Below are positions 52,821 to 64,000 of a DNA stretch of 64,000 nucleotides, one piece after another. The notes under the pieces were generated by a model. That model ran no database searches and was not told the origin of the DNA. It worked only from the letters and a program-made list of their open reading frames with translations. This DNA comes from Caldisericota bacterium (GTDB lineage: Bacteria; Caldisericota; Caldisericia; JAAYUI01), in assembly GCA_029548865.1 (NCBI GenBank), contig JAKPMO010000005.1, positions 26,046-90,045 of the forward strand, read 5' to 3'. The stretch's first letter is position 1; each line of letters starts with the position of its first letter. A program made the translations under genes and the position numbers.

Positions 52821-53384
52821 ATGCAAGAATTTGATGCCGCCAGCCTCATGAAAAGGATAGCAAAAGGCGATGAGGACGCTTTTCGATGCCTCTACGACGA
52901 GTTTGGCGCATACGTTTTCAAGATTGTCGCAATGCAACTTCATGACAATGGTAAAGCGGAGGAACTCACCCAGGACGTCTTCCTCAAAATATGGAGATTT
53001 GCATCGAAATATGATCCTTCAAGGCCCTTCAAGCCATGGCTCTCTCGGGTCATAAGTAACGAAATCATAAGCTACAGAAGGGCGCAGGAAGAGAGAACTG
53101 AAAGTATTGAGGAGCTGGCAGAAACTGGCTACACCCCAGCTGAAGAGATGGACTCATACAGAGACAGACAGCTTTCAGACGACATTTCTTATGAGCTCCA
53201 GAACGCAGTGAGAATCCTTACTGACAATCAGCGGCAAGTTGTCGTAATGAAATATTATGAAGGGCTTAAGATAAGAGAGATAGCAGACAGTCTGGGAATA
53301 GGCGAAAGCGCCGTAAAAGCCAGGTTGTACACAGCTCTCGAAACACTAAGCACAACGGCCCAGAGGGGCAAAAATGGACTGTAA
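52821..53384 (+). CDS. ECF-type RNA polymerase sigma factor
   Basis: Region 2 ELTQDVFLKIWRFASKYD..PFKPWLSRVISNEIISYRR and region 4 REIADSLGIGESAVKARLYTALETL. Confidence 0.88.
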   Translation: MQEFDAASLMKRIAKGDEDAFRCLYDEFGAYVFKIVAMQLHDNGKAEELTQDVFLKIWRFASKYDPSRPFKPWLSRVISNEIISYRRAQEERTESIEELAETGYTPAEEMDSYRDRQLSDDISYELQNAVRILTDNQRQVVVMKYYEGLKIREIADSLGIGESAVKARLYTALETLSTTAQRGKNGL

Positions 53385-55644
53385 GAAAATTAGAGAAGAG
53401 TTTATCGAGTATCTGGAAGGGTCACTGCCAAAAGGTAGGCATGAAGCCTTTGAAAAACACCTTGCAGACTGCAGGGAGTGCAAAAAAGAATTTGAATCAT
53501 TCAAGACGCTTACTGAAAAAATAACGAAACACCTTGAATCACAGGCTTCTTCTCTCAACCCGCCAGCAATGCTGTGGGGAAAAATACTCAAGGAAGCCCA
53601 ATCATCCAAAAAACACAGGAAATTTTCTTTTCTTCTCAAGCCAGCGATTGGCATTGCAGCATGCCTGGCAATCCTTCTTGCGGGTGTCTTTACCCCAGTT
53701 TTCGGAGCCGAAGGCAATCTTATAAATTATATCAGCTCCAACATAATCAACAGTGCCGCAAACGACCTTGAATCAATCTACCAGGACGAACAGTCCGGAG
53801 GAATATACAAAGCCGTAGCAATTGACAAAGCAATCCAGGATGCCGGTCTGACAGACGAGCAGTATTGGGACCTGAGAGACAAGGGCCTCACAGACAAAGA
53901 TATACTCATTGCCGCATATATCAAAAACAATACAAACACCGAATTTGACAATATTGTTGGGCTAAGACTTGCCCCGTGGGGCTGGGGAAGAATAGCAAAC
54001 CACCTCGGAGTATCAGTTTTTTCTGTAGACCCGGCAATAGCTTTCCCAATAATCGAGAGAAAGCGAATGATTCTCGATGCTTCAGAACTTGAGATCAACG
54101 CAGAAGTACTTGACCATACAATAGTTCCAATGAATTTTGGCGGGCCAATACCAGTGCCAGAAGACACATCTCCTATGGACGAGAGTGGAAATCCCATGTC
54201 CTGGGAAGAAGTCAAAATGATGGGATGTGCAAGAATGCGCTTTGAGATGAAACATGGCGCACCAGGACCAAGGCCCATCATCATGCCAGGGCACTGCCCA
54301 AACGAGTATTTTGAAACAACTGGCAATATAGCAGACATTGGAGAAGGAATTGCCACAGTCCAGACCCCTCAAGGCCCGATGCAAGTAAGATTCATTGAGG
54401 GTGAAACCGCAATGATGGGTGAAATAGGCGAGGGAATGCCGATAAGGGTCAAGGGGCTAAGGTTTGGCCCCAGAGTGATAGCACGTTTTGTCGCACCAAT
54501 GGATGAAAACAAAAACGGGCAATCGCAACCGAAAAGTCCCAAAGATGGTGGTAGCAATACTCAAGCACCGAGCAGTGGGAACAAAACTGGAGAAAACAAA
54601 CCAACACCAAAATCTCCTGCAAATAGCGGAACAAAAGATACATCCAAAAAAACCGGCACTGGCAACAAGAACCAGTCTGGCACCCCCGATTACCTGAATT
54701 CGACTTTTGAAACAACGCTCAAAAACATCAGCGAGACAAAGATAACAACAGATGTAGGCCAGTTCCTCATCAACCAAAACACCCTGGTAACTGTAAAGTT
54801 TGATGGAAACGAATTTGCCTTGCATCCAAAGATACTTTCAAGGATTGCGAAAAACACGAAATTGACAGTGTCGACCAAAAATGGAGTTTCGACAGCCATC
54901 CTCATTACAAACACAGGATTCTCAATCAAGAAACTCTGGATGATAAAAGATGATTTTAGAAACATGCGATTGCTGTGCGTGGATGAAACTCTCGCAGAAA
55001 AAATAGTTCAACTCATACCAGAAACCTTGGCATCCGACTTCGATGGCATCCAGATACCATCTCAAGAAATATTCCAAGAAATAAGGCCCGGAAATACCCT
55101 GTTGGTTCTGGAATACAAAAACCAGGCCCTGCATATTGCACATGCCGATAAACCACAGCCACCTGAGGAAATAAGGGGAGAGATATCAGAAAAAACCGGG
55201 TCCTTTATTGTCATAAACGGCAAACAGATAAACATAATATCTTCAACCGAGTGCGAGTGCGCCGGGAAAGGGAAAGGCTCCTGCTCACGGAATGAAATCA
55301 ATGTGGGAGACAAAGCTGTCGCAATAGTATTTAAAATAAACGGCAAGATTGTGGCAACAAAGGTCGTCAAGATGCCAAAAGGCATGGGTGGTATGGGCAT
55401 GGGGCAAGGCGATATTAAAAAGCTCCCCAAATTTCAAATCGAATCGTTGACTCGCACCCAAAATGGGATTCAGATCACATTTAAAGATGGGCCAGTGTTA
55501 CTAGTTACCCCAAAAACTGCAATAAAAATCATCAAAAATGGTACCGAAGAAAGACCAGGCTCGCCAGAGGACCTCAAGACGGGCATGATGGTTGGGGTTG
55601 AATTCTCAAACCGCCAGGCCATTCAGATAATTATCGAGCCCTAA
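53374..55644 (+). CDS. anti-sigma factor (zf-HC2, single TM) with ~640-aa extracytoplasmic domain
   Basis: HLADCRECKKE zf-HC2 motif and TM AIGIAACLAILLAGVF. 11-nt overlap with the sigma gene. The C-terminus has three beta-barrel-like (DUF5666/OB-like) units. Confidence 0.8.
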   Translation: MDCKKIREEFIEYLEGSLPKGRHEAFEKHLADCRECKKEFESFKTLTEKITKHLESQASSLNPPAMLWGKILKEAQSSKKHRKFSFLLKPAIGIAACLAILLAGVFTPVFGAEGNLINYISSNIINSAANDLESIYQDEQSGGIYKAVAIDKAIQDAGLTDEQYWDLRDKGLTDKDILIAAYIKNNTNTEFDNIVGLRLAPWGWGRIANHLGVSVFSVDPAIAFPIIERKRMILDASELEINAEVLDHTIVPMNFGGPIPVPEDTSPMDESGNPMSWEEVKMMGCARMRFEMKHGAPGPRPIIMPGHCPNEYFETTGNIADIGEGIATVQTPQGPMQVRFIEGETAMMGEIGEGMPIRVKGLRFGPRVIARFVAPMDENKNGQSQPKSPKDGGSNTQAPSSGNKTGENKPTPKSPANSGTKDTSKKTGTGNKNQSGTPDYLNSTFETTLKNISETKITTDVGQFLINQNTLVTVKFDGNEFALHPKILSRIAKNTKLTVSTKNGVSTAILITNTGFSIKKLWMIKDDFRNMRLLCVDETLAEKIVQLIPETLASDFDGIQIPSQEIFQEIRPGNTLLVLEYKNQALHIAHADKPQPPEEIRGEISEKTGSFIVINGKQINIISSTECECAGKGKGSCSRNEINVGDKAVAIVFKINGKIVATKVVKMPKGMGGMGMGQGDIKKLPKFQIESLTRTQNGIQITFKDGPVLLVTPKTAIKIIKNGTEERPGSPEDLKTGMMVGVEFSNRQAIQIIIEP

Positions 55645-58600
55645 TCCATCTTCAGTTTAACTGTTACTATCCTGTTCTTCCCATCCCAGGTAACTTGGGC
55701 ACCAAGCTGTTCTGAGACAAATCTCACTGGAATATAAGTCCTGCCTCCCTGGATTATTGGGGGCGCATCAAGCTGAACCATTGTTCCGCCTGATATTGCA
55801 TAGTCTCTGCCAACCCAGAGGAAAATGACAAGCTTGCCTTTTGTGAAGGTGACCATTTTGGTATCGCCATCCCAGGCAACCGTAGCGCCCAGGGATTCGG
55901 CAAGGAATCTAAACGGAACCATGACTCTTCCATTTTTTAATTGGATGGGTGGCGATGTAATCTGTGTCGCTTCACCATCAACCGTTGCAGTGTAGCTTCC
56001 CACCTGCATCACGATGGTTTTATACTTTATCCTCGGGACAACATTGAAGGAGAATGATTTTGTATTGTTCTCAAGTTGTACTTCACCCTCAGACTCAATA
56101 CTTGCGATTAGAACCATATTACCAGAACCCTGTGGAAGCGGCGCTAGGAAAGAGATGCTTTTTCCTGTTTTTGGCTGGAGACCATCCAGTTGCACTCTTT
56201 TGAACAGGTTTTGCCTGTCTTTTGTGTTCCAGTAAAATGCCACAGTAAACGGGCCGGAAGGAATCTGGGATTTATTCTCAACATAGGCGTCAACTGTAAC
56301 CGCCTCACCTTCGTTGGGTTTTATCGGATAAACGGTGGCCTGTCTGACTTCCAGATCAAGGAACTCGCTCAGATCAAAAATAAAAGCATCACCACCACCG
56401 GAGCAGACGAAAGATATCGTTGTTATGCCACCCTTTACCGTGAAGGAGAACGGCGTGCTTGAAGAAGACGAGAGTGGGGCGCCACCCAAAGCAATTGCAA
56501 CCGAGGCACAGAGACCTTTTGGTCCCTGGCAAAGCATCCTCACCTTTGAATCAGTTTTTTCAACCCATGGTACAGCACAAGTTGAAACAAATATTTTCGG
56601 CGGCTTTAGATCTGCAATCGGGACAGTTATCGGATAATCATTTTTTGGGAACTCCCCGGCTTGTTCTACTTTCGACCATGAAAAGCATGCTTCTACTTGA
56701 TCTTTTTCGGCCTCACAATACTGGCATGGCGGTTTTGGAACATCTTCCTTGAGTTCATTAAAAAAGAGTGCTGCGCCAGTTGAAACATCTCCGTCATAAA
56801 GCATGATGTGGCCGGAACCAGCCTTATAAACCTTTCCCAGCCCCACTTCATGGAGCCCGAACTCTCTGGCTACAATTCTTCCCAGGGAGGTTCTTGATCC
56901 CCACCAAACCTCATTTTTAAACCTTCCATCACCCAGCCTGAAAAGGATATTGCCACCTTTTTCTATCCAATTTTTTATAGTTGAAAGGTCATCCTCTGTC
57001 AAAAATGTCGTTGTTTCATCAATAAAAACCTCTTTGGCTCCAATAAAATCCTGTATTTGGGAGGGTCTACAAAAATAACTATTCTGCGCTAGCTGCAATA
57101 TCCAGTCCGGATGTTGGTTCTGGATGTCAAACTGTGGCGCCCATATAGAACTGTCAGTAACTATCTGCACAAAATCGGTTTTGGCTGTCACCGGTTTGTC
57201 TGGAAGAGACAGAGGCCTGTTTTCGGAAACAGAGGTCCCGAGCAAAAACCCGCTTTCTCTGACCCCATCAATATACGCCCTGGAAGTCTTTTCATCAGAC
57301 ACATACACATAGATACCACGCCCGATAATTCCAGCATCCCTAAAACCGGCATAAAAACCCATCTGGTCTGATGCAAATGCTGGAGGAATGACTGTTACTC
57401 TATCAAATTCTTTTAGCAAAAGATAAGGGGCTATCGCCCTGTCAGGTGAATATGGTGATGGAACTGTTACAGCAACTTTCAACCCTTTTTCTTTGGCCAG
57501 TTTTATGGCCTCTTTTCCAAAACTTTCAACTCTGTCGCAGCAGAACATCCCGGCCTTATATGCCAGATCATCATCGGTTTCAATATTCCCCCAGAGCCTC
57601 TTCGCATAGATTTGGAAAGCATCAATCATCTCTGGTTTTGAAAGGTCAGACATCCTTATTGCGCAATAATCCAGAACAATGCCAGTAAAACCTTCAGCCT
57701 CCCCCATCCAGGTTTTGAGCTCAGCCACTGGGTCTCTATCCAAAAGGATTTTGCCAAATGGAATTATAAGATTTGTATCTCCAAATCTTATTGCCTGTGA
57801 AACCAGCTGTGGATCATAAACATCCTGGTTTAGGACTCCTGGCCATGGCTTTCTGGTTATGTTAGCGCAGAATGGCGAGAGTTTCGGGGTCGAGAGTCCA
57901 AGCGAGTCAGGATATCCATCAGAATTGGAATCATAATATGAAGGGTTGATCCCAAGGAAGCGTTCCACATCATCATCCAACCCATCATTGTCGGTATCGA
58001 GAGGCATTATATCCGCATAGTCGTTCTGCTCGTCAAAATCGGTAAACGCCCTGTCAGCATCAGTGCCATACGCCATCTCGAAACTTGAGGGTAAACTGTC
58101 CTCATCAGGGTCCTGATCAATGCCCCAGGAATACAGCTTGCCAGAGCCCTGTAGTTTTACTTCGTTCAAAGATTGTGGAACTTTTGTAAACAAGCACCCT
58201 GAAAGACTGTATATTTCGAGCCCTTCAGCTTTTATTGAGGCAATATTTTCCGCCTGGCACCAGAAAATGGAATCAGCATGTGGTGGCAGTTTGAAAACAA
58301 TAGGCTCATCGGCACTTAAAATAGCTTCTTTGCCAAAACCAGGAAAAACCATTTTTGAAAGTTCAGTTTGAAAATCCATGCAAGAGAGCCCAAAATAGAT
58401 AGAAACCCTTATAATCTTGAGTTCACCAGTTGCCCTTAGAACAATCGAAGAATTCAGATCGTTGGCCGTCATGAAACCATAGGTAAACTCACCAGATTTC
58501 ATAAGCTCGGTACCCTCAGGAGCACCCCCTGAAGCCAGCAAGACTTTCATGTCTCCGATGCTCTCAATTACAACACCGAGAGGACCAGCTTCAGCTTGGT

Positions 58601-59222
58601 TCACTTTATACTTTACTTCATCACCCTTGGATAACCCCCTGCCACCACCAGGAAGCAAAATCGACGAACCGGCGTTGTCCAGATATGCCTGTTCTGTGGG
58701 GGTTCCAGGGTAAATCTCCACACCTCTCCGGACATATAGTTTCCAGAGGGCAAAAGGTTTTGAAGAGCCTTTCTTCTTTGAGAACTTCACACGCAAGGGC
58801 GAACCGCCAGAAGCATCAAGCCTCAACTGGCGCTTCATCTTTACTGAGATGTCCTCATCAATCTGACCTGATTCAAAGTATTGTTTTAGGGGCTCGCCAT
58901 TGAGGGAGGCCTCAATAACAATACTGCCGGAAGTTTCCACTTCCAGCAGTATTGGGCCTTCACCATCAAACCTTATCTTGTATTCGAAAAAGCCCGTTGA
59001 TCTCCTTGAACAACCCTCCACCCATGTCTCCTGTGCCTGGTCAAGATAGAGACCCTCCATTTGGGAGCATGGAATTATAAGTGCAGATGTAATGCCAAGC
59101 GAGGACGCTTTTTCAGCGTTCCTGACCGGAATAACGGCACAGGTAAAAACTAAAAGGGCCGAAAGATTAAGCGTCGTCCAGAACTTTAATGCCTGGGAGC
59201 TCCTTCCCTTCAAGGAATTCAA
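55641..59222 (-). CDS. large secreted multidomain protein (Ca-binding Asp-rich repeats, CARDB-like domain, two C-terminal copper-amine-oxidase-N-like repeats)
   Basis: TTG 59222 lies 6 nt after GGAGGAGGGG and gives MNSLKGRSSQALKFWTTLNLSALLVFTCAVIPVRNAEKA (signal peptide). DTDNDGLDDD/DSNSDGYPD, CARDB-like EGEAVTVDAYVENKS, and C-terminal GRVMVPFRFLAESLGATVAWD and GRTYIPVRFVSEQLGAQVTWD. Confidence 0.7.
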   Translation of the reverse strand: MNSLKGRSSQALKFWTTLNLSALLVFTCAVIPVRNAEKASSLGITSALIIPCSQMEGLYLDQAQETWVEGCSRRSTGFFEYKIRFDGEGPILLEVETSGSIVIEASLNGEPLKQYFESGQIDEDISVKMKRQLRLDASGGSPLRVKFSKKKGSSKPFALWKLYVRRGVEIYPGTPTEQAYLDNAGSSILLPGGGRGLSKGDEVKYKVNQAEAGPLGVVIESIGDMKVLLASGGAPEGTELMKSGEFTYGFMTANDLNSSIVLRATGELKIIRVSIYFGLSCMDFQTELSKMVFPGFGKEAILSADEPIVFKLPPHADSIFWCQAENIASIKAEGLEIYSLSGCLFTKVPQSLNEVKLQGSGKLYSWGIDQDPDEDSLPSSFEMAYGTDADRAFTDFDEQNDYADIMPLDTDNDGLDDDVERFLGINPSYYDSNSDGYPDSLGLSTPKLSPFCANITRKPWPGVLNQDVYDPQLVSQAIRFGDTNLIIPFGKILLDRDPVAELKTWMGEAEGFTGIVLDYCAIRMSDLSKPEMIDAFQIYAKRLWGNIETDDDLAYKAGMFCCDRVESFGKEAIKLAKEKGLKVAVTVPSPYSPDRAIAPYLLLKEFDRVTVIPPAFASDQMGFYAGFRDAGIIGRGIYVYVSDEKTSRAYIDGVRESGFLLGTSVSENRPLSLPDKPVTAKTDFVQIVTDSSIWAPQFDIQNQHPDWILQLAQNSYFCRPSQIQDFIGAKEVFIDETTTFLTEDDLSTIKNWIEKGGNILFRLGDGRFKNEVWWGSRTSLGRIVAREFGLHEVGLGKVYKAGSGHIMLYDGDVSTGAALFFNELKEDVPKPPCQYCEAEKDQVEACFSWSKVEQAGEFPKNDYPITVPIADLKPPKIFVSTCAVPWVEKTDSKVRMLCQGPKGLCASVAIALGGAPLSSSSSTPFSFTVKGGITTISFVCSGGGDAFIFDLSEFLDLEVRQATVYPIKPNEGEAVTVDAYVENKSQIPSGPFTVAFYWNTKDRQNLFKRVQLDGLQPKTGKSISFLAPLPQGSGNMVLIASIESEGEVQLENNTKSFSFNVVPRIKYKTIVMQVGSYTATVDGEATQITSPPIQLKNGRVMVPFRFLAESLGATVAWDGDTKMVTFTKGKLVIFLWVGRDYAISGGTMVQLDAPPIIQGGRTYIPVRFVSEQLGAQVTWDGKNRIVTVKLKMD

Positions 59223-60348
59223 GCGATGCCCCTCCTCCTGTTGATACGTGCGTGAACTGGTTCGTGAATCCGAACTTTGCCGCAGCGGCCGCAGAATCAC
59301 CTCCGCCGATCACAGACACCTTGACTCCGCCAGCCACGCACTTCATGACGGTCTTGGTGCCCTCGGCAAAACGTTCGTCCTCGAACACGCCTAAAGGGCC
59401 ATTCCACACGACTGTTTCACATTTTGTAAGTTCATCGCAGAACATTTTTGAGGTCTTCGGGCCAATGTCAACGCCTTCCATTCCATCGGGAATGCCATTT
59501 GCAGAAATTTTTATGTCTGTAGGGTTTTTGTAATTGTCCGCAACAATATTGTCAACAGGCAGCAAGACTTTTTTTCCTTTTTTTCTGCATTCCTCAAGGA
59601 ATGTCCTGCAGCTGTCTATCATATCCTTCTGGACAAGCGATGTACCAATACCAATGCCCTGCGAGGCCATGAAAGTAAACGACATCCCACCACCAATGAC
59701 TATCAAGTCAGCGATTTTTTCAAGATTGTAAACGACCTTTATTTTGTCAGAAACCTTGGCCCCGCCAAAAACAACAGCGAACGGCCTTTTGGGATTCTCC
59801 GTGGTGTCGCCAAGATACTTGAGTTCTTTCACCAGAAGTAATCCTGCAACGGCCGGTTTCAGAATAAGGGGAACACCATAGATGCTGGCGTGCTTTCTGT
59901 GGCATGTGCCAAATGCGTCATTCACATAGATCTCACCAAGTGAGGCGAGCTCCTTGGAGAACGATTCATCACATTCCTCTTCTTCTTTGTGGAACCTGAG
60001 ATTTTCCAGCACCAATGCCTCTCCTGGCATGAGCGAGTCAACCATCGAACTGACCTGGCAGCCAACGCAGTCAGGTGCCATCTTTATGGGTTTGTTAATC
60101 AATTCCCTCAAATGTTCTGCGATGGGCTTTAATGAGTATTGCTCAACATATTTGCCGTCAGGTCTCCCCTGATGTGAGCAAATAATAAGCTTTGCGCCAC
60201 GATCTAATAGGTGAGTAATCGTAGGCATGGTGGCAGTGATTCTCGTATCATCAACAATTTTTCCGTTTTCAACAGGCGAATTGAAGTCGGCCCTGAGCAG
60301 CACCCTTTTGTTGAAAACATCAACGCCTTCAACAGTGCGCTTCTTCAC
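59167..60348 (-). CDS. pgk: phosphoglycerate kinase
   Basis: RADFNSP, SHQGRP, and a hinge/C-domain with GGGDSAAA and STGGGASLE. The GTG start directly abuts the gap stop. Confidence 0.93.
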   Translation of the reverse strand: MKKRTVEGVDVFNKRVLLRADFNSPVENGKIVDDTRITATMPTITHLLDRGAKLIICSHQGRPDGKYVEQYSLKPIAEHLRELINKPIKMAPDCVGCQVSSMVDSLMPGEALVLENLRFHKEEEECDESFSKELASLGEIYVNDAFGTCHRKHASIYGVPLILKPAVAGLLLVKELKYLGDTTENPKRPFAVVFGGAKVSDKIKVVYNLEKIADLIVIGGGMSFTFMASQGIGIGTSLVQKDMIDSCRTFLEECRKKGKKVLLPVDNIVADNYKNPTDIKISANGIPDGMEGVDIGPKTSKMFCDELTKCETVVWNGPLGVFEDERFAEGTKTVMKCVAGGVKVSVIGGGDSAAAAAKFGFTNQFTHVSTGGGASLEFLEGKELPGIKVLDDA

Positions 60349-61356: not shown

Positions 61357-61495
61357 CTTTCACCTCCAGAACCGATTATGCGCGCCAAAGAATATTTTTC
61401 AACAGTCGCAAAATTCTAGGCAAATCCACACGAATTCAAAAATTTCGCAATTAACCATTTTTCTGGTAATAATTTTTTATAAGGTAAGAGTATTT

Positions 61496-64000
61496 CTATT
61501 CGCAAGGCTCGAGGACCATATCTGTAGCAAAATACTCGTGTCTTTCCTTATCAAATGAACCTTCAATCCAATAGCAGGAAAATAACTTAATATCTTTGCA
61601 CTTTATAAAAGATGGAGGATGGAGAAGAAACACTTCTCCATTATTGTCAGCAGCACAATAACATTTATGGTCAATTTCATCAACACCAACAATTTTTATC
61701 TTTAGGCCATCTGATGATCTATTTTTCTTCGATGCTACCAAATAGATACTTTTTTCTTGCTCATCAATATATCCGCTAAAATCCCAATTGTGACCAATAT
61801 GATAATCAGCGCTGCTCCTACTGCTACTTAAAAATACAATATAGTCACTTTGAATAGTACGTATCCTTATATATCTATATCCGCCAGCCAGTGCATCGTT
61901 GATTTCGAGAATTCTCCCTGTTCTTTTTTCAATTGCACCACAATTGGTTTTTTCAATTGTTTTGGCTTTAATTTTGGTTACATTTGATTCTTTATTATCA
62001 TCCAGATCACCTTTTACTAAGCAACAATCGCCAACCCCAATTTTTGTACATTCGAAATCATTCTGGGGAGGAGTAACCAAATAATATCTTTTTTTGCAAA
62101 TACCAACATATTGATTTTTATCGCAATCAACAGCCGTAATGAAAAGTTTTAAACTGGGATCTTCCTCTTTGCATTGAACTTTTTTTACATCATAACCTTC
62201 AATAATTTTTGTTTCTGGAAAATCAACTCCTTCGATTTCCAGACAAGCGCCTTCTTCAATTGAATTGCAATCCAGCGTTTTTGGATACAAAAGGTCCCAA
62301 TAGGTACTATCATAAAATACTCTCAAACGTTTATTCTCGCAGTCTTTCTTGGTGACTTTTGCATAGGAATGTTCGGTAGGCGGACATTTGGCCCTGACTA
62401 TTTGTAAAGCGACTATCATTTTGTCAGGATTCTCAGAGGTAGACTGTAAAGAACTCAAAACTCCAGTTACCTGCACACAATCACCAACAGTAATTTTCGA
62501 GCAATCAATGGGTTTTGGGGTTGTAACAGAAACATATTGTCCCTGCCATCTTCCAACAAAAAATGGTTCCTTGGCATTGCAGAACACATCGTAAACGTAC
62601 ATGTCAAATGTCTGCTTTGTTTTTGCACATTCTATTACAGTAACCGACTTGGCTTCCCAAAGTCCTGCTTGTGCAGGATCAGGCCATCCCTCAACGTCAA
62701 CACAGATCGGGCTGGAAAGCTTTTTTAGTGGAGTGCAATCATAATTATCCGGCAGTTTAACTTTTCGCACTATCCCTTCAACGTCTACCTGTAAAAATCC
62801 TTTATCACACTCATCTTTTTCGATCCTGCCAGAAAATCTTTGTGGCTGTTCATCCTGGCACCTCGAAAGTTCAACTATTTCGCCTTTTACAACATTGTCT
62901 TGGCCGATTCTGCCACAAACATTTATGCAATCTCCAGAGGAGATTGTTTTGCAATCAAATGAATCAGGAAGAACAACCACCAGATCAGAGCCATCAGGCC
63001 CTGTGCAAACTATGTTGCGTTCCTCGCAGGATGTATTTTTGACTTTCAATCCTTTGCGACAAGCAACATCACAACTTATGTCGGGCGCTTTCGCCAGATT
63101 TACCAAATAGGATTCATCGTTTATCTTTTTCACGCATACTGAATAGCACAGGCCTGTTTTTATCGAGTTGCACAGAGACCAATCGTTTACCCTCAGCTGT
63201 CCTTTTCTGTCACCCATCTCATATTCAAGTTTTTTACCAGCGCAATCTATTTTTGTTGTTCTTATAGTCCATAAATCGTCGCCATTGCAATCAATTTTTT
63301 GGGTGCATCCCTCCGGCCCGACTTCGGTGATCCAGTTTGCCATGTATAAACCGGTCGGGTCTTTTGTGATACAGGCCTTCACACAACGGTCTTCCTTCAG
63401 CCTTATACAATCCTGCTCGGTCACCCTTATAATTATGTCCCCGAGATTGTCATTCTGGCTAATAACTACGACCTGTTTTGAACAGTCAATTGATTTGATC
63501 GTGCCAGTAACGAGTTGACTACTACACCTGTACTTGCACTCTATCGGCCTGAAGTGCGTAGCAATACTTTCCGGTTGCTGGCCGGGTTTTTTGATCTCTT
63601 CAATGCAAATCTCATAGCATTTTCCAGCCTCCAGTGGACAGAATTCAGGCAAGGTGAAGTTTATTTCCATTTGCTCCATTGTCGCCACTTTTGTGCAGTA
63701 GATAATTTTTGCCGCGCAATCCACCCTGTCTATCCTTACCTGGACAGTTTCCCCAGGACATTCATTTTCACACTCGGCGTATGGTTTGACTTTAAGAGCT
63801 ATAAAGCGTTTACCAGACTTAACTACGCAAGCTTCCACGCATTCTGGCATTGAGGACGATATGTCCTCGCAATCTTTTGGAAATATCGCGACTTCAACGT
63901 ATTTATCACCCTGTGCAATGCTCATACTAAGCGAAGCGCAATCAATCTTCACCAGTTTGCCCCTTATGAGGGATCCTTCACAAGAAGAGGAACCGCACGG
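61496..64000 (-). CDS. Cys-rich tandem-module protein, unknown function (at least 834 aa; N-terminus beyond window)
   Basis: The frame stays open upstream of the track's start (an internal GTG) to base 64000 (..PCGSSSCEGSLIRGKLVKIDC..). About 11 units of 70-80 aa with recurring ..[IVK]DC..(25-30 aa)..[DFE]C.{5,8}C.V..G..(20-25 aa)..C. No family recognised. Confidence 0.75.
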   Translation of the reverse strand, partial: PCGSSSCEGSLIRGKLVKIDCASLSMSIAQGDKYVEVAIFPKDCEDISSSMPECVEACVVKSGKRFIALKVKPYAECENECPGETVQVRIDRVDCAAKIIYCTKVATMEQMEINFTLPEFCPLEAGKCYEICIEEIKKPGQQPESIATHFRPIECKYRCSSQLVTGTIKSIDCSKQVVVISQNDNLGDIIIRVTEQDCIRLKEDRCVKACITKDPTGLYMANWITEVGPEGCTQKIDCNGDDLWTIRTTKIDCAGKKLEYEMGDRKGQLRVNDWSLCNSIKTGLCYSVCVKKINDESYLVNLAKAPDISCDVACRKGLKVKNTSCEERNIVCTGPDGSDLVVVLPDSFDCKTISSGDCINVCGRIGQDNVVKGEIVELSRCQDEQPQRFSGRIEKDECDKGFLQVDVEGIVRKVKLPDNYDCTPLKKLSSPICVDVEGWPDPAQAGLWEAKSVTVIECAKTKQTFDMYVYDVFCNAKEPFFVGRWQGQYVSVTTPKPIDCSKITVGDCVQVTGVLSSLQSTSENPDKMIVALQIVRAKCPPTEHSYAKVTKKDCENKRLRVFYDSTYWDLLYPKTLDCNSIEEGACLEIEGVDFPETKIIEGYDVKKVQCKEEDPSLKLFITAVDCDKNQYVGICKKRYYLVTPPQNDFECTKIGVGDCCLVKGDLDDNKESNVTKIKAKTIEKTNCGAIEKRTGRILEINDALAGGYRYIRIRTIQSDYIVFLSSSRSSADYHIGHNWDFSGYIDEQEKSIYLVASKKNRSSDGLKIKIVGVDEIDHKCYCAADNNGEVFLLHPPSFIKCKDIKLFSCYWIEGSFDKERHEYFATDMVLEPCE

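Follow-up and report, generated by a model that had tools for sequence, protein, structure and literature searches.

A cysteine-rich array of putative OB-fold barrels, related to DUF5666, in an exported protein of a Caldisericales bacterium

DUF5666 (PF18914) is a domain of unknown function that occurs as 2-4 tandem units in secreted proteins. It forms a five-strand barrel with the skeleton 'G-x-V-x-x-V-D ... L-x-x-G-D-x-V-x-V-x-G', and some relatives hold a single Cys pair (C2-C3 in the numbering used below, as in P0086). The array protein described here shares the barrel, the skeleton and the tandem arrangement in a secreted protein, whereas its units hold up to three Cys pairs, the Cys-rich arrays count 14-34 units and the array is joined to FN3 and stalk domains. 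The fold and topology are also those (TM ~0.6) of the OB proteins CspA, RPA, CusF/SilF and YgiW (BOF family), among which CusF, SilF and YgiW are extracytoplasmic like the array protein. These proteins have no significant sequence similarity to the array units, which lack their nucleic-acid-binding or Met/His metal-binding residues and differ further in being apparently disulfide-rich and polymerised head to tail.

A functional analogy, drawn from general knowledge, can be made with Gram-positive pilins and adhesin stalks, in which tandem small beta domains carry internal covalent staples, load bypasses the fold and length varies between strains. Their domains are Ig-like with isopeptide or thioester bonds, whereas those of the array are OB-type with putative disulfides, and the array protein has no sortase signal. 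Envelope proteins of anaerobic monoderms carry the same Cu_amine_oxidN1 'stalk' domain (PF07833) as the array protein. This domain is common to a CARDB protein, a PQQ propeller and a beta-helix protein at or near the loci considered here, with the difference that the passenger in the present case is a Cys-rich OB array. The literature on PF07833 yielded no anchoring mechanism, and searches of the literature on DUF5666/PF18914, Cys-rich Caldiserica proteins and stalk-domain surface proteins turned up no account of the family.

Units of the array within the window

The window, a 64,000-nucleotide stretch of the Caldisericota contig JAKPMO010000005.1, ends within a frame whose translation meets no stop over 834 codons and is still open at the edge of the window:

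61496..64000, minus strand: C-terminal 834 codons plus stop, identical to residues 495-1328 of the full-length copy P0048

The initial annotation had read this frame as open upstream, the listed 818-aa ORF beginning at an internal GTG, which is indeed the case. By hand, it had also counted about 54 Cys in 818 aa, and it had divided the frame into about 11 repeats, each 70-80 aa long, of which one (roughly aa 691-765) is without Cys. A unit HMM returned exactly 11 units of this length (per-unit E 1e-6 to 1e-16) and no match beyond them in the six frames of the whole window. The computed count, close to the manual one, is 56 Cys (6.7% of the 834 residues), and the Cys-free unit corresponds to unit 13 (ORF aa 691-761), which still matches the unit HMM at 1.8e-6. 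Numbered as in the full-length protein, the units are as follows:

63761..63982, minus strand: unit 4, six-Cys OB-type barrel (unit HMM and Cys alignment)
63527..63760, minus strand: unit 5, six-Cys type with 7 Cys
63290..63526, minus strand: unit 6, six-Cys type, the AF2-modelled unit (pLDDT 90.4), at which the sister-strain genes stop
63053..63289, minus strand: unit 7, six-Cys type, opening the strain-variable 3′ cassette
62843..63052, minus strand: unit 8, six-Cys type, its C1 sitting in a 'DVAC' junction
62621..62842, minus strand: unit 9, four-Cys type, with C2-C3 and C4-C6 only
62381..62620, minus strand: unit 10, four-Cys type, orthologue of unit 23 in the 26-unit relative P0062
62156..62380, minus strand: unit 11, four-Cys type, orthologue of unit 24 in P0062
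61931..62155, minus strand: unit 12, four-Cys core with two additional Cys
61718..61930, minus strand: unit 13, degenerate, 0 Cys, hydrophobic pattern kept (E 1.8e-6)
61499..61717, minus strand: unit 14, C-terminal, 5 Cys

The protein terminus ('...ATDMVLEPCE' and the stop) comes straight after unit 14. This C-terminus has neither LPXTG nor a transmembrane anchor, and the LPXTG, hydrophobic segment and charged tail of a sortase-anchored Gram-positive adhesin are absent from it. Tandem Repeats Finder detected 0 tandem repeats at the DNA level in the array, indicating that its units are old and diverged, as had been supposed, rather than products of a recent duplication. The segment is also more AT-rich than gap-pgk (40.5% vs 47.8% GC), in keeping with the first impression, and only units 7-14 are low in GC (38.3%, against 46.1% in units 4-6).

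The Cys skeleton recognised at the outset translates into four conserved positions, C2 (in 'DC'), C3, C4 (in 'G-x-C') and C6, to which C1 and C5 are now added, making a six-Cys unit. The absence of CXXCH stood up and extends to CXXC: the full 1328 aa, with 70 Cys, contain 0 of each, and thereby lack the motifs of multihaem cytochromes, Fe-S proteins and zinc ribbons. Among the 834 aa of the window ORF there are only 7 His and 9 Met, and the protein has a pI of 5.3.

Fold and relation to DUF5666

A single unit (unit 6) was modelled by AF2 with a pLDDT of 90.4 and a pTM of 0.77. The predicted strands (4-14, 19-23, 30-34, 48-55 and 61-69) and helix (37-42) follow the order b1-b2-b3-helix-b4-b5, and nearly all of the top 50 Foldseek matches of this model are OB domains (TM 0.5-0.67), with CspA, RPA, SilF/CusF and YgiW as top matches. 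The model and its matches thus agree with the OB-fold barrels proposed by the initial annotation. Three units modelled together gave a pLDDT of 85.4 and a pTM of only 0.57, hence a rigid inter-unit geometry is not confidently predicted.

The suggested likeness to DUF5666 also gained support. In hhalign, unit alignment A1 matched 89 Cys-free DUF5666-type units with 97.1% probability (E 6.8e-11, 61 columns). This Cys-free set includes P0089 and P0092, which Pfam calls DUF5666 at 1e-14 to 1e-17, and an HMM built from it matches the window ORF at 9e-17. The Pfam model itself, with a gathering score of 27 bits, has no match to the window ORF at E<=10 and a best E of 0.0013 to single units, while the orthologues P0002 (31.4 bits) and P0064 (32.3 bits) lie above the gathering score. 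The Cys-free copies of the barrel that had been placed in the anti-sigma ectodomain at 54700..55641 were not confirmed, this region giving a sub-threshold Pfam match (E 0.024, 15 bits) and an E of 0.85 with the unit HMMs. Compared with PDB sequences, the unit profile returned chance-level matches only (e.g., galectin-1, E 0.015), NCBIfam holds no model for the array protein, and the units match no family of known function. On the profile comparisons, the array is an apparently undescribed Cys-rich branch of the DUF5666 domain family.

The family came to light in a full HMMER scan. Identical protein is present on 12 contigs from several sources, orthologues of the same architecture extend down to 27% identity, and relatives sharing this architecture reach 33-34 units and 224 Cys. 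Unit number varies among related genomes, with 14, 17 or 33 units at the same locus in different Caldisericia; between species, orthology holds for the N-terminal and the C-terminal units, and the middle units vary in number. Barrels of the family with 0, 2, 4, 6 and 8 Cys form a graded series, and the units with 2, 4, 6 and 8 Cys are all on the same fold. In a related eight-Cys clade, each junction between units carries CxC and CPC motifs, and in two members of this clade (<=50% identity) the gene divergently adjoins a Fur-rubrerythrin-desulfoferrodoxin-ferritin operon. Used as a single query against the genome contigs, P0077 gave only a stalk-domain match in a Bacillota MAG.

Export signal, N-terminal domains and locus

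Full-length copies, identical or near-identical to the window protein, have 1328 aa, 70 Cys and 14 units, preceded by a Sec signal peptide, an FN3-like domain and a Cu_amine_oxidN1 'stalk' domain. Beyond the window edge, the N-terminal 494 aa accordingly hold the signal peptide, the FN3-like and stalk domains and units 1-3. At a 98%-identical locus (L001), an in-frame ATG after a GGGGG Shine-Dalgarno-like site opens the reading MRKIISLLSC...TTLA, followed after the putative cleavage site by F. Read directly in the sequence, the signal peptide MRKIISLLSCFAIAFQIFVPAQNTTLA, followed by S, displays n, h and c regions. In the remaining members of the family that were examined, a signal-peptide-like start is likewise followed by the same FN3-like domain. 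The FN3-like profile matches PDB 3mpc ('Fn3-like protein') at 6.9e-9, and Cu_amine_oxidN1 (PF07833) is found at aa 145-248 of the full-length copy P0001 (1.5e-26). A lipoprotein reading was rejected because the signal-peptide Cys, at position 10, is too near the N-terminus and is missing in orthologues. The N-terminus, off-window for the initial annotation, was thus recovered with a signal peptide and no lipoprotein lipobox. These signals mark the array protein as an envelope protein that an uncultured, anaerobic member of the Caldisericales exports by the Sec route, with a predicted cleavable signal peptide. Together with the FN3-like and stalk domains, they favour the surface fibre that had been offered as one of two options.

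Around the array, the window contains:

61496..63295, minus strand: AT-rich strain-variable 3′ cassette, units 7-14, 38.3% GC
61357..61495, minus strand: intergenic region before gap, with a promoter-like TTGAAA-16-CATAAT at 61402..61375
55641..59300, minus strand: second secreted envelope protein, CARDB and C-terminal Cu_amine_oxidN1 stalk domain, 18 Cys

In sister strains, the gene ends after unit 6, and a stop codon and a 908-aa PQQ-propeller/stalk-domain gene replace units 7-14, suggesting that the distal units are dispensable. Genes for extracytoplasmic PPIases (SurA/PrsA-like) divergently adjoin the array gene in 4/4 orthologous loci, and further stalk-domain proteins secreted by these organisms contain 18 and 36 Cys. 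No terminator-like hairpin was seen in 61357..61495. A link of the array gene to gap-pgk was considered and rejected, since gap has its own promoter-like site; it is also undercut by the eight-Cys and mixed clades, which are not beside gap, although the adjacency is conserved.

Cysteine pairing and the role of the array

Co-occurrence of the six conserved positions C1-C6 was scored across 220 units, in which Cys are gained or lost as three independent pairs. C2 and C3 are both present in 105 units and both absent from 29, with 1 discordant (p 1e-28), C1 and C5 show the same pattern (86 with both, 38 with neither, 11 discordant; p 4e-23), as do C4 and C6 in the mixed clade (45, 31 and 9, respectively; p 3e-14), although these p-values overstate independence as the units are related by descent. 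No correlation was found between different pairs, and pairing within one unit fits better than pairing with the neighbouring unit. Of the units counted, 249 contain an even number of Cys and 82 an odd number. The pattern is conserved in homologues, with 68/69 Cys retained at 12.4% sequence divergence and 70/70 at 7.3%. A bias towards even Cys numbers and the loss of Cys in tandem are both recognised as signs of disulfide bonding (PMC2823432, PMC4498770), and the units combine paired conservation, even counts and tandem loss of partners as disulfide domains do. From the AF2 strand order and canonical OB topology, one end of the barrel would carry C2, C3, C4 and C6 and the opposite end C1 and C5, which makes each pair spatially plausible. 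C1-C5, C2-C3 and C4-C6 are therefore probably intradomain disulfides. The barrels had initially been described as disulfide- or metal-stapled; the independent pairs argue for the former, whereas the lack of CXXC and the scarcity of His argue against the latter.

In an obligately anaerobic digester organism, the formation and stability of disulfides are not expected. The general view is that proteins exported by anaerobic monoderms do without structural disulfides. A quick scan of the window for a [WFY]CxxC thioredoxin-like motif gave no convincing candidate. The Cys could instead be free thiols, ligands of Fe, Zn, Cu or Ni, or persulfide/polysulfide carriers, so that the array would serve a sulfur-reducing anaerobe as a surface matrix binding metal or sulfur, as a sink for oxidants or as a conduit for electrons. 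The strictly anaerobic, sulfidic habitat, which generally disfavours disulfides, the metallochaperones CusF and SilF among the structural matches, and the junctional CxC/CPC motifs and operon neighbours of the eight-Cys clade all point that way. We nevertheless regard this as unlikely, as Cys come and go in independent pairs and not in threes or fours, 2- to 8-Cys units share one fold, and the paucity of His and Met and the absence of CXXC/CXXCH go with a lack of any conserved non-Cys ligand residue. In addition, CusF and SilF bind metal via Met, His and Trp, not Cys. The same two eight-Cys members beside the Fur-rubrerythrin-desulfoferrodoxin-ferritin operon hint at another role, in which the Cys pairs, rather than being static staples, would form a surface thiol/disulfide reservoir of 70 to >200 redox-active Cys per molecule, with which a lineage of sulfur-reducing obligate anaerobes could absorb oxidants or transport electrons or sulfane sulfur extracellularly. 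This is a distinctly improbable reading which, if true, would mean that bacteria without an outer membrane possess an extracytoplasmic redox pathway so far unrecognised.

OB is the classical oligonucleotide/oligosaccharide-binding fold, nucleic-acid binders top the Foldseek list, and variable repeat number with strain cassette swapping is typical of adhesins. Through the classical OB face, the barrels might hence bind a polymer such as an oligosaccharide or extracellular DNA, the protein being a biofilm-matrix or substrate-binding adhesin with the disulfides as mere stabilisers. This role is doubtful, because the b2-b3 face has no conservation besides Cys, Gly and core hydrophobics, the acidic pI speaks against DNA binding, and the arrangement is unlike that of known tandem OB nucleic-acid binders (TM 0.2-0.36). 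That the ORF is a degenerating, unexpressed remnant in a variable region, as its AT-rich 3′ half missing from sister strains and its Cys-free unit might suggest, is very improbable in view of the intact 2.5-kb frame, the identical copies on 12 contigs, the near-complete Cys retention at 7-12% divergence and the distant orthologues of the same architecture.

The function of the array is more probably structural (i.e., tether, fibre or adhesin stalk) than catalytic, and we favour, with a probability of roughly 0.6, a wall-associated, disulfide-clamped bead chain serving as a tether or fibre. In six-Cys units, the N-terminal tail (via C1) and the C-terminal tail (via C6) would both be tied to b4, where their partners C5 and C4 are four residues apart. 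As only 3-5 residues would join C6 to C1 of the next unit, the chain would offer a near-continuous covalent load path bypassing the fold, and would be stiff and resistant to stretching and proteases. The FN3/stalk module at the N-terminus would hold the chain at the wall, anchoring through the stalk domain being assumed, and the chain would project outward. At ~3 nm per unit, it might reach ~40 nm here and ~100 nm in the 33-unit orthologues, with the middle six-Cys units acting as a length-adjustable spacer and the conserved four-Cys C-terminal units as the distal end.

Should the predicted geometry hold, such a chain would be a disulfide counterpart of the covalent force shunts in Gram-positive pili. 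DUF5666 gains a fold, a probable Cys connectivity and a family context, and, in an organism common in digesters, the locus appears as a hotspot at which surface proteins vary between strains. With three apparent disulfides per 75-residue domain and up to 34 domains, the family may provide a concrete test of extracellular oxidative folding in strict anaerobes.

Full-length protein and repeat units

The array ORF (61496..64000, minus strand) translates into 834 stop-free codons and has not closed by base 64000, where the window ends; the 818-aa version was called from an internal GTG start, as the initial annotation had read it. This fragment contains 56 Cys (6.7% of residues) and few His (7 in 834 aa), and Pfam returned sub-threshold OB-fold matches only (tRNA_anti-codon, E 0.043; NigD_N-like, E 0.64). 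Full-length counterparts were found in public assemblies: P0001 (1318 aa, 98% identical) and P0048 (1328 aa), an exact copy whose C-terminus is the window ORF. At L001, the locus of P0001, the frame can be extended upstream by 10 codons, as far as an ATG preceded by a GGGGG ribosome-binding-like site. Read from this ATG, the N-terminus (MRKIISLLSC...TTLA|F) has the sequence of a typical Sec signal peptide, which answers the earlier question of whether the off-window N-terminus carries a signal peptide or a lipobox. A lipoprotein identity was rejected, because the signal-peptide Cys at position 10 is not kept in orthologues.

A Cu_amine_oxidN1 stalk domain follows at residues 145-248 (1.5e-26). 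The approximately 100 residues ahead of it are FN3-like, a profile built from this segment in 12 family members matching PDB 3mpc, an 'Fn3-like protein', at 6.9e-9. The C-terminus is without an anchor. Iterated HMM searches delimited 14 units in the full protein, the first starting at residue 266. Exactly 11 lie in the window, where about 11 had been counted by eye, and the HMM search found no unit-model match elsewhere in the window. No DNA-level tandem repeat was found in the array. Six Cys positions recur within the unit:

C1: N-terminal edge of the unit
C2: 'DC' following strand 1
C3: third recurrent Cys position
C4: 'G-x-C' at the beginning of strand 4
C5: C4+4
C6: past strand 5

Units 3-8 have six Cys and units 9-12 have four, lacking C1 and C5; unit 14 has five, and unit 13 is the Cys-free unit already recognized in the sequence.

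Fold and family

The AF2 model of unit 6, computed from an alignment of units with 113 rows, comprises five strands, the third and fourth separated by a short helix (pLDDT 90.4, pTM 0.77). Its Foldseek matches in the PDB are OB folds (CspA, RPA, SilF/CusF, YgiW and aaRS anticodon-binding domains; TM about 0.6), and no solved structure related to the units by sequence was detectable. In a model of three consecutive units (pLDDT 85.4, pTM 0.57) the predicted domains are confident, their mutual orientation less so, and no likeness to solved tandem-OB arrangements was seen (TM 0.2-0.36).

The unit profile was scanned with HMMER against 1.84 billion representative proteins. It matched 203 of them at E<=1e-3, 20 of these reaching E<=1e-30, and the matched proteins fall into a graded series by Cys content per unit.

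Proteins matched by the unit profile
Six-Cys proteins: 1635-2996 aa, 17-33 units; the relative P0064 is named Caldisericia
Mixed clade: 2-6 Cys per unit
Eight-Cys clade: CxC and CPC at each junction; up to 3191 aa and 224 Cys
Two-Cys proteins: C2-C3 alone kept; stalk domain C-terminal
Cys-free proteins: DUF5666 by Pfam, 1e-14 to 1e-17

All Cys-rich clades have the same layout: signal peptide, FN3-like domain, stalk domain and array. By hhalign, the window-derived profile matches that of 89 Cys-free units with 97.1% probability (E 6.8e-11), and an HMM from Cys-free units retrieves the window ORF at 9e-17. The units therefore belong to the DUF5666/OB superfamily, in which they form a Cys-rich branch, and the OB-fold/DUF5666-like reading proposed from the sequence agrees with both model and profiles. 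Pfam's own DUF5666 model does not reach the window protein, no NCBIfam model for it exists, and no published description of the Cys-rich array family was found in the literature. The domain is of a known kind; its Cys-rich variant here is uncurated and undescribed.

Cys-free copies of the barrel had also been proposed in an anti-sigma ectodomain, where aa 601-664 give only a sub-threshold DUF5666 match (E 0.024) and the unit HMMs lend no support. The anti-sigma factor (53374..55644), of zf-HC2 type and 756 aa long, has a large ectodomain, and its gene adjoins that of an ECF sigma factor (52821..53384).

Two eight-Cys members, P0077 and P0083 (<=50% identity), are each encoded next to a divergently transcribed Fur-family regulator/rubrerythrin/desulfoferrodoxin/ferritin operon (L004:7530-9551; L010:3342-5475), a conserved adjacency that may indicate a redox or iron connection. 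P0077 also carries a second recurrent insert of ~90 aa between unit runs (aa 696-789, 950-1036 and 1365-1462), its motif in eight-Cys proteins being 'CKW.RG.I...GCAEVC.KD...W.ALPNEK.CC'.

Variation at the array locus

Neighbouring housekeeping proteins cluster with Caldisericales or Caldisericia MAGs, including the digester bin ADurb.Bin132. The locus is present in four Caldisericia lineages, in the order SurA/PrsA-like PPIases, array gene, gap, pgk, CARDB/stalk protein, zf-HC2 anti-sigma factor, ECF sigma factor and gatB. A survey of unit number, suggested at the outset, revealed 14, 17 or 33 units at this same position. Compared unit by unit with the 26-unit relative P0062, units 1-6 of the window protein correspond to units 1-6, and units 7, 8, 10 and 11 to units 20, 22, 23 and 24. 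It is therefore the six-Cys units in the middle whose number grows and shrinks.

In sister strains (88-92% DNA identity), the end of unit 6 (window 63296) is exactly where the array gene stops, and units 7-14 (window 61496..63295) are replaced by a 908-aa PQQ beta-propeller/stalk gene with 36 Cys (L011:8188-11031), collinearity returning just upstream of gap. Both alternative cassettes are AT-rich (38.3% GC for units 7-14 and 34.8%, the genome having 45%), a composition suggestive of a hotspot at which surface-protein genes recombine. They also explain the AT-richness noted initially, the array ORF having 40.5% GC compared with 45.4% in the window and 47.8% in gap-pgk.

No terminator was found between the array gene and gap. 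Their adjacency is treated as incidental, because other clades lack it and gap is preceded by a promoter-like site of its own. For the CARDB/stalk protein, the longest ORF (55641..59300) begins with GTG and shares 134 nt (59167..59300) with the 3' end of pgk (59167..60348); in related contigs the gene is called as 1193 aa and the overlap is still about 56 nt. Every orthologous locus has, upstream of the array gene and divergent from it, two to four paralogous SurA_N/PPIC-type PPIase genes whose products lack Cys (L001:6699-9662; L005:3734-9740); these are candidates for extracytoplasmic foldases of the array.

Cysteine pairing and the proposed fibre

The initial annotation proposed a disulfide- or metal-stapled polymer, acting as a surface fibre or a metal/redox scaffold. 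An even-number Cys bias and tandem partner loss are recognized as indicators of disulfides (PMC2823432; PMC4498770). An even Cys number is found in 249 units, an odd one in 82. Among the 135 units of the six-Cys clade, C2 and C3 occur together in 105, are jointly missing from 29 and disagree in one (p 1e-28); for C1 and C5 these numbers are 86, 38 and 11 (p 4e-23). The mixed clade, with 85 units, gives 45, 31 and nine for C4 and C6 (p 3e-14). All these p-values overstate independence, since units share descent. No cross-pair Cys combination was correlated, and partners in the same unit fit better than partners in neighbouring units. The periodic pattern, whose loss in homologues was named as a possible refutation, is kept, close orthologues retaining 68/69 Cys at 12.4% divergence and 70/70 at 7.3%. 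Judging from AF2 strand order and canonical OB topology, C2, C3, C4 and C6 would lie at one barrel end, opposite C1 and C5, a placement that would make the pairs C1-C5, C2-C3 and C4-C6 geometrically reasonable and alternative pairings not. A motif scan found neither CXXC nor CXXCH in the array protein; together with the seven His and the protein's pI of 5.3, this makes metal sites, haem and DNA binding less likely. The paired gain and loss of Cys thus favours the disulfide half of the earlier alternative, and the barrels are most likely stapled by disulfides.

In such a chain, the incoming polypeptide would be tied by C1 to strand 4 at C5, and C6 would fasten the outgoing polypeptide to strand 4 as well, at C4, which is four residues from C5, with 3-5 residues from C6 to the next unit's C1. 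With both ties on strand 4 and so short a linker, the load path in six-Cys units could bypass the fold, running from disulfide through four residues to disulfide. The outcome would be an unstretchable bead chain, for which isopeptide-locked pilins offer a conceptual parallel.

Caldiserica are among the lineages listed as having lost the outer membrane (bioRxiv 10.1101/2021.05.31.446380). With its FN3/stalk module at the N-terminus and no C-terminal anchor, the array would extend outward from the wall. The initial observation is real, its reading as a secreted polymer of OB/DUF5666-type barrels is essentially right, and of the two roles first envisaged, surface fibre and metal/redox scaffold, a structural one is most likely.
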